Shown here one piece after another: positions 14,249 through 22,628 of a stretch of 64,000 nucleotides of DNA. The stretch comes from an uncultured Candidatus Rokubacteria bacterium (lineage in GTDB: Bacteria; Methylomirabilota; Methylomirabilia; Rokubacteriales; CSP1-6). The notes under the pieces are model-generated. The model worked only from the letters and a program-made list of their open reading frames with translations. It was not told the DNA's origin and made no database searches. The stretch lies in the NCBI GenBank assembly GCA_963747235.1, contig CAVVEU010000029.1, positions 128,001 through 192,000 on the forward strand, in the 5' to 3' direction. Each line of letters starts with the position of its first letter. Position 1 is the first letter of the stretch. The translations under genes were made by a program, and so were the position numbers.

Positions 14249-14289
14249 CCTCCACCCTCTCCCCTCAGGGGAGAGGGCAGGGTGAGGGG
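14249..14289. repeat. BoxC/REP-like palindromic repeat, copy 1
   Basis: CCCTCTCCCC-tca-GGGGAGAGGG followed by CAGGGTGAGGGG, right after a stop codon. Confidence 0.85.
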
Positions 14290-14309
14290 TGGTCTACAGG
14301 AGAACACCC

Positions 14310-15245
14310 ATGAGCGACAACCGCGCCGTCGTCGTCGACCCCGCCGCCCCCGGCCGCCTCGTCATCCGCGCCGTCCCCGACCCGGTCCCCGATCGCGGCG
14401 AGGCCATCGTTCGCGTACGCGCGATCTCCCTGAATCGCGGCGAGGTCCGCCGCTCCACCATGGCCGCCGCCGGCTGGCGCCCCGGCTGGGACCTGGCCGG
14501 CCACGTGGAGCGCGCCGCCGCCGACGGCACCGGGCCCCAGGTCGGCGCGCGCGTGGTCGGAATCCTGCCGGAAGGCGCCTGGGCCGAGCGCGTGGCCGTG
14601 CCCACGCACGCGCTGGCCGAGCTGCCCGAGAAGGTGACGTTCTCGCAGGCCGCCACCTTCCCGGTGGCCGGCCTCACCGCCCTGCACGCGCTCGGCAAGA
14701 ACGGCCCGCTTCTCGCCCGCCGCGTGCTGGTGACCGGCGCGACCGGCGGGGTCGGCGACTTCGCGGTGCAGCTCGCGCGCCTGGGCGGCGCCCACGTGAC
14801 CGCCAGCGCCCGTCGCGCCGATCAGGTTCCCGCGCTCCGCCAGCTCGGCGCGCACGAGGTGACGGTGGGCGACGAGATCCCGCCCTCGCCCAAGTACGAT
14901 CTGATCGTCGAGTCGGTGGGCGGGCGCACCCTCGGCACCGCGCTGGCGGCGCTGCAGCGCGGCGGCGTCTGCGTCACGCTGGGCGTCTCCGCCTCCGCGG
15001 ATGTCACCTTCGACGCGCGCACGTTCTTCGCCACCGGGCGCAGCACGCTCTACGGGCTCTATCTCTTCAGCGAGCTCGGCGCCGAGCCCGCGTCGATCGG
15101 CCTGCGCCGCCTCGCCGACCTGGTGGCCGCGGGCCAGCTCGCGCCGCACGTCAGCGTGGAGCGCCCGTGGAGCGAGATCGCCCAGGTGGCCGCGGATCTC
15201 ATCGCGCGGAAGTACCCGGGCAAGGCCGTGCTCACGCTCGCCTGA
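14310..15245 (+). CDS. MDR-superfamily NADPH:quinone oxidoreductase-like protein (no Zn ligands evident)
   Basis: VRAISLNRGE, PGWDLAG, VLVTGATGGVG and GKAVL; AGGAG RBS. Confidence 0.88.
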   Translation: MSDNRAVVVDPAAPGRLVIRAVPDPVPDRGEAIVRVRAISLNRGEVRRSTMAAAGWRPGWDLAGHVERAAADGTGPQVGARVVGILPEGAWAERVAVPTHALAELPEKVTFSQAATFPVAGLTALHALGKNGPLLARRVLVTGATGGVGDFAVQLARLGGAHVTASARRADQVPALRQLGAHEVTVGDEIPPSPKYDLIVESVGGRTLGTALAALQRGGVCVTLGVSASADVTFDARTFFATGRSTLYGLYLFSELGAEPASIGLRRLADLVAAGQLAPHVSVERPWSEIAQVAADLIARKYPGKAVLTLA

Positions 15246-15249
15246 TCCG

Positions 15250-16443
15250 ATGCCGCGCCTCGACCGGCTGCCGCCGCTCAACCGCAACAACCTGCTGCTG
15301 CTGCCCGTACAGGTGAACGATACCGCGCCGTTCACGCATCTGGCCCGGCCGCTGTCCGAGTCACGGCTCGCCATCGTCACCACCGCCGGCCTCCACCGCC
15401 GTGGCGACCGGCCGTTCGGGCCGGGCGAGCAAGGCTATCGCGTGATCCCCTCGGACACGCCGGCCGCCGAGATCGTCCAGAGCCACACCAGCCTCGGCTT
15501 CGATCGCGTGCCGACGATGCGCGACCTGAACATCTCGTTCCCGGCGGACCGGCTCCGCGAGCTGGTCACGCGCGGCGAGCTCGGGGCGATGGCGCCGAGC
15601 CACTACTCGTTCATGGGCGCGCTGCGGGATCTCGGGCACATCCAGGACGCGACGGGGCCCGAGGTCGGCCGCCGGCTTCGGGCCGAGGGCGTGGACGCGG
15701 TCCTGATCACGCCCACCTGACCCTTCTGCACGCACACCGGAGGTGTGCTGGCCCGCGCGCTCGAGACCACCGGCCTCGCCACCACGTCCATCAGCATGGT
15801 GCGCGAGCACACCGAGAAGGTGAAGCCCCCGCGCGCGCTCTTCGTGCCGTTCCCCTTCGGCCACGCCCTGGGCCGCCCGGACGATCCGGCCCTCCAGCAT
15901 CGCGTCCTCCGCGCCGCCCTGGATCTCCTTGGCGAGCCGGCCGGCCCGGTGCTCCGCGACTTCCCCGACGACGCGGAGCCGGGCGATCAGCCGGCCGCGC
16001 CCACCCAGGCCTCCGGGATCACGCCCGCGGCAACCATCTCGGAGGATCCCGCGCTCGAGACCGCGCGGATGCGCCAGTACCACGAGCAATGGCTGGCGCG
16101 CAGCGGCGGGCGCACCGCCTTCGGGTTGAGCGGCGTGCCCGCCACGCGCTTCCGCGGTGTGGTGCGCTTTCTCCAGGCCTTCGCGGCCGGCGAGGACGCT
16201 AATCTGGAGGAGCGCCCGACGGAGGTCCCGCTCCCGAACTTCCTCCGCTACTGCGCGGACGACTGGAAGGCGCTCTACTTCGAGGGCCGCATGGTCATGA
16301 AGCCGGGCGCGAGCGGTGACGACGTCGCGCGGTGGTTCTGGGGGGAGACGGCGGCGGCCCAGGTGCTCCGCCGCGTCGGCAAACGGCTGGAGACCTCCGA
16401 GGACCCGCGCTGGAAGGCCGCCGCCTTCGGCGTGGCGCGGTAG
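15250..16443 (+). CDS. Selenoprotein of the PrdB/GrdB (D-proline/glycine reductase B) family, Sec at codon 157, with a C-terminal extension; 397 aa
   Basis: Frame is continuous across TGA 15718-15720: VDAVLITPT-U-PFCTHT..LARALE. PrdB-like motifs lie on both sides (AIVTTAGLH, D.NISFP.DRL.EL, HYSFMG, TGP; PPRALFVPFPFG). SECIS-like hairpin downstream. Confidence 0.88.
15732..15748 (+). promoter_or_regulatory. Bacterial SECIS element (cis-acting Sec-insertion hairpin)
   Basis: GCACACC-GGA-GGTGTGC forms a perfect 7-bp stem with a G-first loop, starting 11 nt after the UGA. Confidence 0.75.
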
Positions 16444-16448
16444 GGTCT

Positions 16449-16480
16449 CCTCACCTACCCTCTCCCCCGAGGGGAGAGGG
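16449..16480. repeat. BoxC/REP-like palindromic repeat, copy 2 (between convergent genes, possible terminator)
   Basis: CCTCACCTA followed by CCCTCTCCCC-cga-GGGGAGAGGG. Confidence 0.8.
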
Positions 16481-18156: not shown

Positions 18157-19101
18157 CTACCGCTTGAGGCGGGGCAGCAGGCGAGCGGCCGCTTCGTCCA
18201 CCTGGGCGAGCTGATCGCCGCCCGCGAAGCGCAGCGCCAGGTGCCGGGCGCCCGCGTCGATCCAGCGCTGGAGCCACTCCACCGCGCCCTCGATGGGGCC
18301 GGCATACGTGGCCTGGCGTGCCTTGATCGCTCGCGCGGGCGCGGCGTAATAGTGCTCGAGGAACGCGTCGAGCCGCTTCTCCGCCGCCGCCGCGCTGGGA
18401 TCGAGCGCGAGCGTGAGGTAGGCCGCGCCGGTCACCGCGTCGGGGGCGCGGCCGGCCGCGCGCGCCGCCGCCTGCACGCCGGGGAACTTCTCGGCGAAGA
18501 ACTCGACGCCGGGCCCGGTGGGAAACCACGCGTCGAAGCGCGCGGCCTCGCGGAGCGCGGTGGGCCCGTTGCCGCCGATCCAGATCGGCGGGCCGCCCGG
18601 CCGGTGCGGCTTGGGCTCCACGGTGGCGCCGTCGAGCGTGAAGTGCTTGCCCGCGAAGCTCACGTTGTCGCGCTGCCAGAGCGCGCGGCAGATCTCGATG
18701 GTCTCGAGGAAGCGGCCCACGCGGCGCTCCCACGGAACGCCCAGGTGGGTGAACTCCTTCCGGCTGGCCGGGTTGTCGCCCACGATGCCGACGCCCAGGA
18801 TCACCCGTCCCTCGGCCAGGCGATCCACGGTCGCGATCAGGTGCGCCAGCACCACCGGGCGGCGTAGCGCGGGCAGCAGCACGCCGGTGCCGATGCGCAC
18901 CCGCCGGGTCCGCGCCGCGATGGCGGCCATCAGGGTCAGCGGCTCGTGCCGCGGCTTGGCGGTGATCGAGTCGCCGATCCAGACCGAGTCGAAGCCCGCG
19001 GCCTCCGCGCGCTCGGCCATGGCCAGCAGCGGGCCCGTCTCCGGGCGGTCCGACATGATCGCCTCGCGGGTGGGAATCAGTACGCCGAATTCGACCGGCA
19101 T
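18157..19101 (-). CDS. LLM-class (flavin/F420-type) oxidoreductase
   Basis: MPVEFGV, AGFDSVWIGD, RVRIGTGV, PKP...PPIWIGG; AGGAGG RBS. Confidence 0.88.
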   Translation of the reverse strand: MPVEFGVLIPTREAIMSDRPETGPLLAMAERAEAAGFDSVWIGDSITAKPRHEPLTLMAAIAARTRRVRIGTGVLLPALRRPVVLAHLIATVDRLAEGRVILGVGIVGDNPASRKEFTHLGVPWERRVGRFLETIEICRALWQRDNVSFAGKHFTLDGATVEPKPHRPGGPPIWIGGNGPTALREAARFDAWFPTGPGVEFFAEKFPGVQAAARAAGRAPDAVTGAAYLTLALDPSAAAAEKRLDAFLEHYYAAPARAIKARQATYAGPIEGAVEWLQRWIDAGARHLALRFAGGDQLAQVDEAAARLLPRLKR

Positions 19102-19103
19102 CG

Positions 19104-22100
19104 CTACCTCCTGGCCAGATCCTCGACTTCTCGAATGAGGGGCGACGACTCGAGCCCCGCCCGTAGGCCGGGATCCCGGGTTGCCGCCCGTAGCCGGGTG
19201 ATGATAGCCCAGGCCGTGCGGTAGCGCCCGAGCGCCTCCTCCCGTCGCCCCCGCGCCGCATCGAGCCGGCCGAGTGCGACCTGGCTCACCCAGGTCTGGC
19301 GCGGCTGGCCGATCGCCTCCGCGATGGTCAGCGCGCGCCGCAGCGCATCGTGCGCCTCGTCCCAGGCGTGGCGCGCGGTCGCACTCTCTCCCTTGATGCG
19401 CCACGCCCAGCTCTCGAACTTCCGCGACCGGGTCGGCACGCCGATCTCGAGGCTCTGATCGGCGAGCCGCCGGGCCCGCTCGGGATCGCCCTGGAGCAGC
19501 GCGAGCTGCCCCAGGCCCGCGTAGCACTGCGTCGCGTAGCGCCAGGTCATCCAGCGCGAGGGCGGCGGATGGCGGACCACATGATGCGACTCTTCGAGCG
19601 CCTCGGCGGCCGCGGCGAGATCTCCCTGCGCCATCCAGGCCTCGGCCTCGTTGTTGCGGATGAACGCGCGGCGCTCGGCGCCGGTGCCGTGGCCGGCCCG
19701 CGACGAGCGTCCGGTGGCCTCGTACGATTGCTCCGAGAGCTCGACCCCGGTCGGATAGTCGCCGCACTCGATTCGCAGCCAGCCGATCGTGTTGAGAAAT
19801 CGCGGAATATACGCGTCGTCGCCGATCTTCTCCGCGAGCGCAAACCCCTCGCCGAGGGCCGCAAGCGCCCGGTCGTACTCTCCCACGTCATTGGCCGCCA
19901 CCCCCTCGTTCCACAGGCAGCGGAGCAGCGGGACGACGAGCCGATGTTCGCGGGCGATCCGAGCACCTTCCGCGCTGAGCTCGAGGCTCGGCCCATACTC
20001 CCCCTGCCAGCTCCGATGCAACGAGAGGAAATGGAGTGCGAGCGCCTGGCGATTCGGATCACCCACCGCCCGGCCGATGGTCAGGGCCCGCCCGACGTCC
20101 GCTTCCGCGTCGTCGAGGCGCCCAGAGACCGCGTGCATGTAGCCCCGGATGTACAGGCCGAAGCCCAGCGGGGCCTGGGCCCCGACGCTCTCGGCGATCT
20201 CGATCGCCTCTCGCACCCGCTCGAACGCGGGCGGGAAATCCTCGGCCCACTGGAGCGCCTGGGCGACCTGCACCAGCGCCACCGCCTCCGCGACGCGATC
20301 GCCGGCGCGGCGGGCCAGGTCCACGAGGGCCTCGGCCGCCTCGCGGGAGCGGACGAAGTCGCCGATGCCAAAGAAGAGGTCGGCCCGCGCGCGATGAATC
20401 GCCATGAGCGTGGCCACGGGCGCCGACTGGCGCCGCCGGGCCGCAACCACGAGCGCCTCGGCATACAGCTCGATGGCCTGCCGCAGGCCGAACGCCTGGG
20501 TCGCCTTCTCGGCGGCCTTGAGCAAGTAGTCGAGCGCCCGGTCCCAGTCCTCGGCATGCGAGAAGTGGTGGGCGAGCATCTCGAAGTGCTCGGCGAGCCG
20601 ATCGGCGTACAGCTCCTCGATGGCCCGCCCGATGAGCCCGTGCAGCTCCTTGCGCCGTCGCACGAGGAGGGAGGCGTAGGTCACATCCTGGGTCAAGGCG
20701 TGCTTGAACATGTACGCCAGCTCGGGGAAGCGGCGGCGCTCGTGGATCAGCTCGAGCGCGGTGAGCTCACGGAGGTTGTCCTCGGTGCTCTCCCGGATCT
20801 CGGCCAGGCGGTCCACGAGCCGTCGGGTGAACTCGCGCCCGATCACCGACGCGAGCTGCAGCGTCTGCTTGGGCGCTTCGGCCAGCCGGTCGATCCGGGC
20901 CGCGATCACGTCCTGGATGGTGCTGGGAATGTCGGACGCGGTCACCGGCCGGGCCAGGTCGAGCCGGCCGTTCGCCCGCCGCAGGACTCCGCCTTCCTCC
21001 AGCGACTTGACCAGCTCCTCGACGTAGAACGGGTTGCCCTCGGCCTTCGTGGCGACGAGCGCCCGCAGCTCGGCCGGCAGGGTGTCGGTGGCGAGGACCG
21101 CCGCCGCCATGCGGACGCTGTCGTCGGCCGACAGCGGCGCCGGCACGATGCGGGTGAAGTAGCTGCGATCGCCGAAGGGACTCGGGTATCCCGGTCGATA
21201 GGTGAACACGAGCAGCGCCCGGACCGCCGGCACGCTGTCCACCAGGGACGCGAGGAACTGCTCGCTCGCACTGTCGATCCAATGCAGGTCCTCGATGACC
21301 AGGATCTGGGATTGCCGCTCGGCCGCGCGGACCAGGAGGCGACGGAGCGCGTCGAGGATCTCGCCGCGGCGTTCCGCGGGGCTCATGGCCCGCACCGCCT
21401 CATCGCCCGGGTCGACGGACAGCAAGGCCCGGAGATACGAGGAGACGGGCCCGAGGTCCGCACCGATCTGCGCGACCCCCCGCTCGAGCTTCGCGGTGAT
21501 GGCCGCGTCGCCGTCACTCTCCTCGACGCCGAACCAGCGCCGGATCAGGTCGACCAGCGGATGAAAGGCCATCGCCTTCCCGAACGAGAGACAGTGGCCT
21601 TCGTGCCAGTCGCCGGCGGCGCCGACCCGGCGGCGAAGCTCGAGGAGCAATCGTGACTTTCCGATCCCGGGCTCGCCCACGACGAATACCACCTGTCCCT
21701 CGCCGGACTGGGCGCGGGCGAAGGCATCGAGCAGCTGGCCCAGCTCGCGCTCGCGCCCCACCAGCGGGGTGAGCCCGTGCTCCACCTCGACGTCGAGGCG
21801 CGTGCGCGCCTCGCGGGCGGTCACCACTTCCCAGGCGGGCATCGGCTCGACCTTGCCCTTCAGCTGCTTCTCGCCCAGCGAGCGCGTCTCGAAGTAGCCG
21901 TGCACGAGCCGATGGGTCGCCTCCGAGATCGTCACCCGACCAGGCTCGCCCACCTGCTGCATGCGCGCCGCCACGTTGGTGGTATCGCCGACCGCGGTGT
22001 AGTCCATGCGCAGGTCGCTGCCGATGCTGCCCACCACCACGAGGCCGGTATTGAGGCCCTGGCGGACGCGGAAGGTGATGCCGCGCGGCCGGAGCTCGGC

Positions 22101-22628
22101 CTGGTAGGCGTCGAGCGCGCGGGCGATGCCGAGCGCCGCGTGGACGGCCCGCCGCGCGTGGTCCTCGTGCGCGATGGGCGCCCCGAAGAGCGCCATGATG
22201 CCGTCACCGAGGAACTGGTTCACCGTGCCCTCGAAGCGGTGCACCTCGGCCAGCATGAGATCGAAGGCGCGGCTCATGAGCCGGTGAACTTCCTCGGGAT
22301 CGAGGCCGGCGGACAGGGCCGTGAAGCCGGAGACATCCACGAAGAGTACCGTCACCTGCTTGCGCTCGCCCTTGAGCGCCCCCGCGGTGGTGAGGATCTT
22401 CTCGGCCAGATGCTTCGGGGTGTAGACGGTCGGCGAGGCGAACTGATCGGGAGCTGCCTGCGCGGGCTCACGCTTCGGCGCGAGGGCGGCACCACACTGG
22501 TGGCAGAAGCGGTTGCCCGGCGGGTTCTCCGTCTGGCACGCGGGACAGGCCACGACCAGGCGCGCGCCGCATCCGCCGCAGAACTGGGCGGCGGCCGGAT
22601 TCGCGTGGCCGCAGCCAGTGCAGGTCAT
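19104..22628 (-). CDS. Double zinc-ribbon + class III nucleotide cyclase + AAA/STAND ATPase + TPR protein
   Basis: Four CxxC; LFVDVSGFT, FLGDG and GDTTNVAAR; Walker A GEPGIGKS; Walker B VIEDLHW; GNPFY; helical repeats at the C-terminus. Confidence 0.93.
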   Translation of the reverse strand: MTCTGCGHANPAAAQFCGGCGARLVVACPACQTENPPGNRFCHQCGAALAPKREPAQAAPDQFASPTVYTPKHLAEKILTTAGALKGERKQVTVLFVDVSGFTALSAGLDPEEVHRLMSRAFDLMLAEVHRFEGTVNQFLGDGIMALFGAPIAHEDHARRAVHAALGIARALDAYQAELRPRGITFRVRQGLNTGLVVVGSIGSDLRMDYTAVGDTTNVAARMQQVGEPGRVTISEATHRLVHGYFETRSLGEKQLKGKVEPMPAWEVVTAREARTRLDVEVEHGLTPLVGRERELGQLLDAFARAQSGEGQVVFVVGEPGIGKSRLLLELRRRVGAAGDWHEGHCLSFGKAMAFHPLVDLIRRWFGVEESDGDAAITAKLERGVAQIGADLGPVSSYLRALLSVDPGDEAVRAMSPAERRGEILDALRRLLVRAAERQSQILVIEDLHWIDSASEQFLASLVDSVPAVRALLVFTYRPGYPSPFGDRSYFTRIVPAPLSADDSVRMAAAVLATDTLPAELRALVATKAEGNPFYVEELVKSLEEGGVLRRANGRLDLARPVTASDIPSTIQDVIAARIDRLAEAPKQTLQLASVIGREFTRRLVDRLAEIRESTEDNLRELTALELIHERRRFPELAYMFKHALTQDVTYASLLVRRRKELHGLIGRAIEELYADRLAEHFEMLAHHFSHAEDWDRALDYLLKAAEKATQAFGLRQAIELYAEALVVAARRRQSAPVATLMAIHRARADLFFGIGDFVRSREAAEALVDLARRAGDRVAEAVALVQVAQALQWAEDFPPAFERVREAIEIAESVGAQAPLGFGLYIRGYMHAVSGRLDDAEADVGRALTIGRAVGDPNRQALALHFLSLHRSWQGEYGPSLELSAEGARIAREHRLVVPLLRCLWNEGVAANDVGEYDRALAALGEGFALAEKIGDDAYIPRFLNTIGWLRIECGDYPTGVELSEQSYEATGRSSRAGHGTGAERRAFIRNNEAEAWMAQGDLAAAAEALEESHHVVRHPPPSRWMTWRYATQCYAGLGQLALLQGDPERARRLADQSLEIGVPTRSRKFESWAWRIKGESATARHAWDEAHDALRRALTIAEAIGQPRQTWVSQVALGRLDAARGRREEALGRYRTAWAIITRLRAATRDPGLRAGLESSPLIREVEDLARR

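Follow-up and report, generated by a model that had tools for sequence, protein, structure and literature searches.

A probable stand-alone PrdB-like selenoprotein with an unrecognised helical domain, cut in two by gene finders, in a Candidatus Rokubacteria genome

In D-proline reductase and glycine reductase, the selenolate of PrdB or GrdB attacks the substrate, a cysteine (Cys) resolves the intermediate to a Se–S bond, and a dithiol protein re-reduces that bond. Here, a gene for a relative of these proteins is described from an uncultured Candidatus Rokubacteria bacterium of the Methylomirabilota. The gene lies in a 64,000-nucleotide stretch of contig CAVVEU010000029.1 (assembly GCA_963747235.1, positions 128,001 to 192,000), which is called the window below and whose first letter is position 1. 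Its product is very probably a stand-alone PrdB-like selenoprotein with a helical domain that has gone unrecognised, and it belongs with the orphan 'PrdB' proteins, carrying selenocysteine (Sec, U) in a U-x-x-C motif, that have been reported since 2005.

Such genes have been counted in ocean surveys. In the Sargasso Sea survey, 'proline reductase PrdB' selenoproteins with U-x-x-C ranked third among the families by abundance, with 42 genes (PMC1088965), and the Global Ocean Sampling (GOS) survey counted 235, assigned to pfam07355, along with 110 Cys homologues (PMC2398784). 'Proline reductase' selenoproteins were reported from Anaeromyxobacter and Geobacter in a 2006 comparative study (PMC1794560), and a 2026 review mentions a Methylomirabilota metagenome-assembled genome (MAG) with 63 predicted selenoprotein genes, citing the groundwater MAGs of Deng et al. 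(PMC13188914). In the relevant passages of the two ocean surveys, the proteins resemble the one described here in being pfam07355 U-x-x-C selenoproteins of oxic settings, with no proline reductase context and few Cys homologues. These passages give counts only, so that likeness in the C-terminal domain falls outside the comparison; the present case differs in coming from a soil lineage and in having its selenocysteine insertion sequence (SECIS) and architecture defined. No published account of the C-terminal domain, SECIS or function of orphan PrdB-like proteins was found in a search that did not cover supplements. In the databases, Cys forms with two domains go by the names 'D-proline reductase (dithiol) PrdB' and 'glycine/sarcosine/betaine reductase selenoprotein B family protein'; halves of Sec-type forms are entered as 'hypothetical protein'. 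An earlier note, made from the letters of the window alone, had proposed an uncharacterised selenoenzyme at this locus. Its selenoprotein, its split gene and its extra domain all stand; its rarity does not, as the ocean surveys go back to 2005 and the Cys forms already carry names.

A single frame of 397 codons runs through window positions 15250-16443 (+ strand) with TGA 15718-15720 as its sole interruption, exactly as the earlier note had it, and reads ...VDAVLITPT-U157-PFC160-THTGGVLARALE across this codon, with THTGG after PFC. The ATG lies 4 bases 3' of the TGA that ends a zinc alcohol dehydrogenase-type gene of the medium-chain dehydrogenase/reductase (MDR) kind (14289-15245); since that gene ends with TGA, the codon is a normal stop in this genome. 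The N-terminus MPRL..L is common to 32/32 aligned homologues, and the C-terminal strings that the earlier note had quoted (GRTAFGLSG, RYCADDWKALYFE and WFWGET) are all found in the read-through translation. Under translation table 11 the frame falls into two open reading frames (ORFs), 15001-15720 and 15745-16443, and the piece after the TGA stands in public protein sets as 232-aa 'hypothetical protein' entries. The best explanation overall is that both ORFs are one gene encoding a 397-residue selenoprotein, which we consider highly probable. The features of the gene are as follows.

15250..16443, + strand: complete gene of the predicted selenoprotein (ATG 15250, stop TAG 16441-16443; 397 codons plus stop)
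15250..15984, + strand: predicted N-terminal PrdB-like alpha/beta domain (residues 1-245; TIGR04483 at 21-227, PF07355 at 29-156; model confidence, pLDDT, mostly >90)
15718..15720, + strand: in-frame TGA, read as selenocysteine 157 (TGA in 79/80 related loci, TGC in 1/80; Cys in full-length homologues)
15727..15729, + strand: TGC for Cys160, the putative resolving cysteine of U-x-x-C (invariant column, 32 sequences)
15732..15748, + strand: candidate SECIS hairpin GCACACC-GGA-GGTGTGC (7 bp, 3-base loop, 17 bases; starts 11 bases past the TGA)
15985..16044, + strand: Pro/Ala-rich linker (residues 246-265; least confident stretch of the model, variable alignment columns)
16045..16440, + strand: predicted C-terminal six-helix domain (residues 266-397; pLDDT 92-93; no family or fold match)

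Just past the stop codon, at window 16455-16480, there is also a G+C-rich inverted repeat (CTCTCCCC..GGGGAGAG), either terminator-like or a repeat element.

Homology runs across the TGA without a break in the domain. The NCBIfam PrdB model TIGR04483 spans codon 157 (residues 21-227, E 9e-41, 139.9 bits). Ten full-length orthologues from the same genus or family, with 79-87% identity and found among 40 relatives of the genome, each contain exactly one TGA, and the codon 157 site is TGA in 12/12 orthologous loci where it could be located. A scan of one genome per species yielded 80 full-length loci. TGA occupies the site in 79 of these (78 by pattern and one, L120, by translation), TGC occurs only in L121 from Streptomyces sp. 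CA-111067, and neither TAA nor TAG was seen among the 80. Half of the loci (40/80, 63-87% identity) are mostly labelled Methylomirabilota/Rokubacteria, with 9 of these labelled otherwise; the rest are labelled Dehalococcoidia/Chloroflexota/SAR202 (30), Entotheonella/Tectimicrobiota (7), Thermoleophilia (2) and Streptomyces (1). Further, full-length metagenomic homologues with 51-55% identity (P0017, P0068 and P0118) carry Cys at the position of codon 157, and in an alignment of 32 sequences C157 is nearly invariant and C160 invariant. The alignment at codon 157 that the earlier note proposed thus returned TGA at 79 of 80 loci and Cys in full-length homologues, all of the latter being single chains and not two separate proteins.

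The codon itself is not an assembly slip, because a DNA contig from another study's run shows zero differences to the window over 15667-15817. Among the 40 of 194 difference rows that were listed for assembled contigs of four runs, none falls at 15718-15720; independent assemblies read TGA at this codon and not the TGC or TGT that the earlier note had considered. Contigs from RNA libraries of relatives bridge the TGA as well, which is no demonstration of transcription. Collectively, comparison of sequences strongly supports decoding of UGA 15718-15720 as selenocysteine, and the gene product is very likely a selenoprotein.

In length (17 bases) and in distance from the UGA (11 bases), the candidate SECIS hairpin would correspond to the upper stem-loop that makes up the minimal element of E. 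coli fdhF. If decoding proceeds as in known bacterial selenoprotein genes, the hairpin would serve to recruit SelB bearing Sec-tRNA(Sec). Covariation was scored over 75 distinct Sec-type sequences, with the single Cys-type sequence excluded. In this set 93.9% of hairpin cells are paired and 4/7 pairs are altered on both sides; the covariation score is 0.194 vs 0.085 for shuffled alignments, 0/500 shuffles attain it, and slid registers reach at most 0.075. For example, at pair 22-30, 57 sequences have A-U, 15 have G-C and 3 have G-U, and the change at the 5' base of this pair, which turns Thr to Ala, is accompanied by a synonymous T-to-C change at the 3' base. In the Cys-form gene of Streptomyces, two of the seven pairs are broken.

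The machinery for selenocysteine is also in place. The window's own genome contains selA (578 bits), selB (365 bits), selD (228 bits) and tRNA-Sec (69 bits), all above their cut-offs, and the lack of such genes that the earlier note had named as telling against selenocysteine was not found. selA, selB and tRNA-Sec are clustered on contig C14 and selD lies on C27. selA and tRNA-Sec are above threshold in 4/4 TGA-form genomes tested and neither is present in the TGC-form Streptomyces genome, so that the Sec or Cys state agrees with the presence of the machinery in 5/5 other genomes. It should be noted that the selD match on C27 (G000:C27:46033-46945) consists of two overlapping pieces, and that a second selD-like region (G000:C8:303114-303868) consists of three successive pieces. 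Frameshifts, assembly errors or a recoded site may explain these fragmented matches.

The predicted protein has two domains. An AlphaFold2 model built with the 32-sequence alignment forms one compact globule (mean predicted local distance difference test score, pLDDT, 92.0; predicted template modelling score, pTM, 0.92 over both domains). It has an alpha/beta domain up to residue ~245, a low-confidence linker, with pLDDT 58 in the block at its edge (residues 241-250), and then six helices over residues 267-396. The U157-x-x-C160 motif sits at a strand-to-helix turn between strand 150-154 and helix 160-173. The model strongly supports packing of the helical C-terminal domain against the PrdB-like domain into a single globule. 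The two-domain architecture is maintained to ~30% identity across homologues, which bears out the earlier note's extra domain of ~130 residues past a Pro/Ala linker. Invariant or near-invariant residues are spread over both domains (S81, D85, P98, G123, R195, Q216, D338, Y343, E345 and W362), and those of the helical domain also include T367.

Searches with the C-terminal domain returned little. Pfam and NCBIfam gave no match to it, and a profile search of PDB sequences came back empty. When the domain was folded alone (pLDDT 92.8), no clear PDB neighbour emerged: the Foldseek comparison that the earlier note had suggested reached a best E of 0.24, and VIA wide a best Z of 4.9. In the ESM Atlas, the C-terminal domain of the Cys homologue P0017 met only unnamed clusters, with scores of at most 0.86. 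For the whole protein, Foldseek found nothing in the PDB at E 0.001 or better, and VIA wide found generic Rossmann-like matches (LacI and SDR families, Z at most 8.4) over residues 33-245 only; PrdB or GrdB structures did not turn up by sequence. The modelled C-terminal domain therefore has no recognised relative, by which a new fold is not proven. The linker offers a further lead. In a distant Cys-type group with the same two domains (P0130-P0170), the linker contains a conserved Cys, with Pro as the next residue, at the place of Q-A-S in the window subfamily (residues 253-255; A2 columns ~265-275). As this distant subgroup has an extra conserved linker Cys, the linker may reach the active site, and this residue may be a third redox cysteine in that group.

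Among described families, PrdB of the clostridial D-proline reductase scores best, with 206/238 positions of TIGR04483 aligned and Sec in a U-x-x-C motif at the homologous turn. However, the window protein reaches 139.9 bits against an equivalog cut-off of 300, and has 397 residues with an added helical domain whereas the 238-position PrdB model ends near residue 227. Further, it has no detected PrdA/GrdE proprotein in its genome, and its gene lies among genes for oxygen-dependent enzymes and not in a prd operon. Similarly, for GrdB/GrdF/GrdH, the B subunits of the reductases for glycine, sarcosine and betaine (PF07355, TIGR01917/01918), the matched part is the Sec-bearing C-terminal half of the Pfam GRDB model (PF07355, 29.3 bits vs a gathering threshold of 22, residues 29-156). 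The N-terminal ~200 residues of GrdB are absent from the window protein, the score against TIGR01918 is 39.4 bits vs a cut-off of 65.45, and no GrdA was detected in the genome. The Cys-type homologues in the databases share 30-55% identity and have Cys in place of Sec. For example, WP_353536255.1 from Cognatishimia (415 aa, 'glycine/sarcosine/betaine reductase selenoprotein B family protein') has the two domains and C-x-x-C at the same site.

The missing partner was sought across genomes. The models for PrdA (TIGR04480), for GrdA (PF04723) and for the proprotein family of GrdE and PrdA (PF09338) found nothing in the window's own genome, which is 88% complete. The absence of a prdA/grdA/GrdE-type partner that the earlier note had reported for 64 kb thus holds genome-wide, in a search that did not take in grdC and grdD. 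PF09338 was likewise not found in 4/5 other carrier genomes. The fifth, G043, has three PF09338 genes ~1 Mb from its PrdB-like gene, which implies that the search can detect this family.

Most relatives have 1-3 TGA-bearing paralogues with 25-40% identity. In the window's own genome, a second PrdB-like gene (L047, G000:C8:~471043-471573) also has an in-frame TGA (VLVPS-U-PVC-HQT). It is a single-domain gene with a short tail, preceded by an ORF with a CCG motif (heterodisulfide-reductase-like) and followed by a family III CoA-transferase gene. Its N-terminal part lies in a different frame, which suggests a frameshift or assembly error.

In the window, the gene is the last of a same-strand row comprising genes for a thiamine pyrophosphate (TPP) enzyme, a family III CoA-transferase and the MDR protein. 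Around it lie a cytochrome P450 gene (10103-11326) and genes for a glucose/sorbosone dehydrogenase, a solute-binding protein and a luciferase-like monooxygenase (18157-19767); the P450 and monooxygenase genes agree with the aerobic look that the earlier note had given to this context. At 19104-22628 on the - strand there is a large regulator-type ORF with zinc ribbons, an adenylate/guanylate cyclase domain, an AAA ATPase domain and tetratricopeptide (TPR) repeats. When ORFs within 4.5 kb of the gene were clustered for the 80 loci, no prd or grd gene was among the neighbours, and the window's row was found to be kept only among loci with at least 80% identity. No family of neighbours lies close to more than 24 of the loci, and the adjacent genes vary by clade, with VOC/glyoxalase genes in a group of Chloroflexota/SAR202-type loci, metallophosphoesterase genes in Entotheonella and Liv-type transporter genes in some Methylomirabilota. 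On account of this limited conservation, the window neighbours were dropped as definers of a pathway.

Eight contigs labelled as unrelated groups (L054, L060, L066, L069, L071, L074, L079 and L081) carry a gene 67-84% identical to the window's. Their labels include Deferrimicrobiaceae, Limnocylindria, Binatia, Micromonosporaceae, Terriglobia and Acidoferrum, and two of the contigs (L054 and L060) also keep the window's entire gene row. For these oddly labelled contigs, mis-binning seems more likely than gene transfer.

The most suggestive neighbourhood is that of the Cys form in Streptomyces sp. CA-111067 (L121:2985-10128), whose gene is embedded, on one strand, in a set for chlorocatechol-type ortho-cleavage. 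The set comprises a PcaI/PcaJ-type CoA-transferase, a muconate/chloromuconate cycloisomerase (356 bits, cut-off 335), DUF1330, a catechol/chlorocatechol 1,2-dioxygenase-like gene, a dienelactone hydrolase and an iron-containing alcohol dehydrogenase, and a LysR regulator adjoins it. The window itself offers no more than a distant match to a cycloisomerase, ~30 kb from the gene. This aromatic context is a lead and not evidence.

Based on the analogy with PrdB and GrdB, the protein may be a stand-alone selenol/thiol reductase that works without a PrdA/GrdE pyruvoyl partner, a reading that we favour tentatively and rate at somewhat short of an even chance. Sec157 as selenolate would attack an electrophilic atom of the substrate or a disulfide; an attack of Cys160 on the selenium would then set the reduced product free and form a Se–S bond; and a dithiol of thioredoxin or glutaredoxin type would re-reduce this bond. 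As the source of the substrate pocket, the helical domain probably stands in for the PrdA of proline reductase. The recycling step draws support from a small clade with a fused glutaredoxin domain: among the 120 relatives of P0225 that were listed, 4 carry PF00462 at the C-terminus. These four (P0225, P0278, P0279 and P0281) are C-terminal halves from a related Sec-type subfamily. About 100 further relatives in that list, of ~285 aa and unnamed or named 'hypothetical protein', look like post-TGA halves of another subfamily.

Of the other explanations, one takes the TGA as a true stop, leaving two separate proteins of 156 aa and ~232 aa as publicly annotated. Gene callers predict just this, and among the 150 best representative clusters 51 are C-terminal pieces starting just past the site and another 12 are N-terminal ones reaching up to it; GTG 15745 could also act as a start. 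However, a table-11 gene caller must yield split pieces for any selenoprotein gene, and the abundance of halves in the protein sets is what the earlier note had expected of gene callers. A stop here would sever one PrdB-like domain halfway through the turn that holds its active site, the Cys-containing homologues are single chains, the 79 interrupted genes from several phyla all have TGA with no TAA or TAG, and GTG 15745 falls within the conserved hairpin. Two separate proteins are hardly credible on these grounds, and gene finders wrongly cut one real gene at the selenocysteine codon. The protein could instead be the selenoprotein subunit of a reductase for D-proline, glycine or a related amino acid, with the gene for a pyruvoyl proprotein at another locus or in the 12% of the genome that the assembly lacks. 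PrdB is indeed the best family match, the Joint Genome Institute (JGI) names the Cys forms 'D-proline reductase (dithiol) PrdB', and one carrier genome has the three PF09338 genes. Against this, the score is less than half of the PrdB cut-off, the 130-residue domain lies outside the PrdB model, PF09338, TIGR04480 and PF04723 have no match in the 88%-complete genome, no prd or grd gene is a neighbour in the 80 loci, and the PF09338 genes of G043 are remote from the PrdB-like gene. The four carriers without PF09338 include, as labelled, one complete genome and one chromosome-level MAG. On these grounds, a role as a subunit of proline or glycine reductase is very unlikely.

Two further explanations keep the selenoprotein and differ on its substrate; each is possible and neither is likely. 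In one, the protein acts broadly as a thiol-disulfide oxidoreductase or peroxidase and is not tied to a particular small-molecule substrate. The position of U-x-x-C at a strand-helix turn would fit, as would a faint, non-significant likeness to the active-site stretch of glutaredoxin (E 0.26-0.32), and a passage of PMC1794560 classes proline reductase with 'homologs of thiol-based oxidoreductases'. However, the modelled fold appears Rossmann-like rather than thioredoxin-like, and invariant residues far from the motif, in both domains, fit better with a defined enzyme pocket. The other is a more specific version of the stand-alone reductase favoured above: a catabolic reductase that would cleave a C-halogen, C-N, C-O or C-S bond beside a carbonyl or on a ring-cleavage intermediate, by selenoether chemistry of the PrdB type and with no pyruvoyl group. 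Such a role is suggested by the aromatic-catabolism gene set around the Streptomyces Cys form, by the TPP-enzyme, CoA-transferase and MDR genes that precede the window gene, and by VOC/glyoxalase, Rieske hydroxylase, amidohydrolase_2 or FadB-type neighbours at other loci. However, besides L121 a dioxygenase neighbour occurs in just 1 other locus of the 80 (L071), the synteny of the window is restricted to close relatives, and such genomes may hold many catabolic genes, so that adjacency could be due to chance.

Several points weigh against the stand-alone reductase and its reading as a selenoprotein. The mechanism is drawn by analogy from PrdB and GrdB, and the distance from the PrdB cut-off means that the chemistry may differ. 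With the window's genome 88% complete, a partner may be encoded in the 12% that is absent from it. No conserved neighbour indicates a substrate; the commonest family, the luciferase-like monooxygenase, is near only 24/80 loci, and genomes with such neighbours may hold many of these genes. The glutaredoxin fusion is rare and occurs in a different subfamily. For the hairpin, the 71-base fold around it is not unusually stable compared with shuffles (z +0.97), so that conservation and covariation are its sole support. The sequences compared for covariation are akin to one another, a case in which a shuffle control overstates significance. Further, a scan of 15500-16000 against Rfam gave no SECIS-type match; a riboswitch row of 17 bits, due to chance, was all that it returned.

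In counts from ocean metagenomes, orphan PrdB-like proteins rank with the most abundant selenoproteins, and the present case supplies a testable definition of a large subfamily: gene limits, Sec codon, covarying SECIS and a confident two-domain model. The lack of a match to PrdA-type genes in the window's genome and in 4/5 other carriers argues that a partner is not needed. The natural Cys form in a Streptomyces strain with a complete genome makes functional testing practical. A wider proposal, which goes well beyond the selenoprotein assignment and is offered as speculation with the chances against it, is that two-domain PrdB-like proteins form a large family of self-contained selenoenzymes in aerobic soil and ocean bacteria, nearly all of them mis-annotated. 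They would cleave carbon-heteroatom bonds reductively, in the manner of PrdB, without a pyruvoyl subunit, with the C-terminal domain replacing PrdA in substrate binding, and their substrates would be intermediates in the breakdown of aromatics or organic acids. Standard annotation would split or truncate the gene in 79/80 of the species genomes examined, and because of this splitting, the family, and the selenoproteins of soil and ocean bacteria, may be undercounted.

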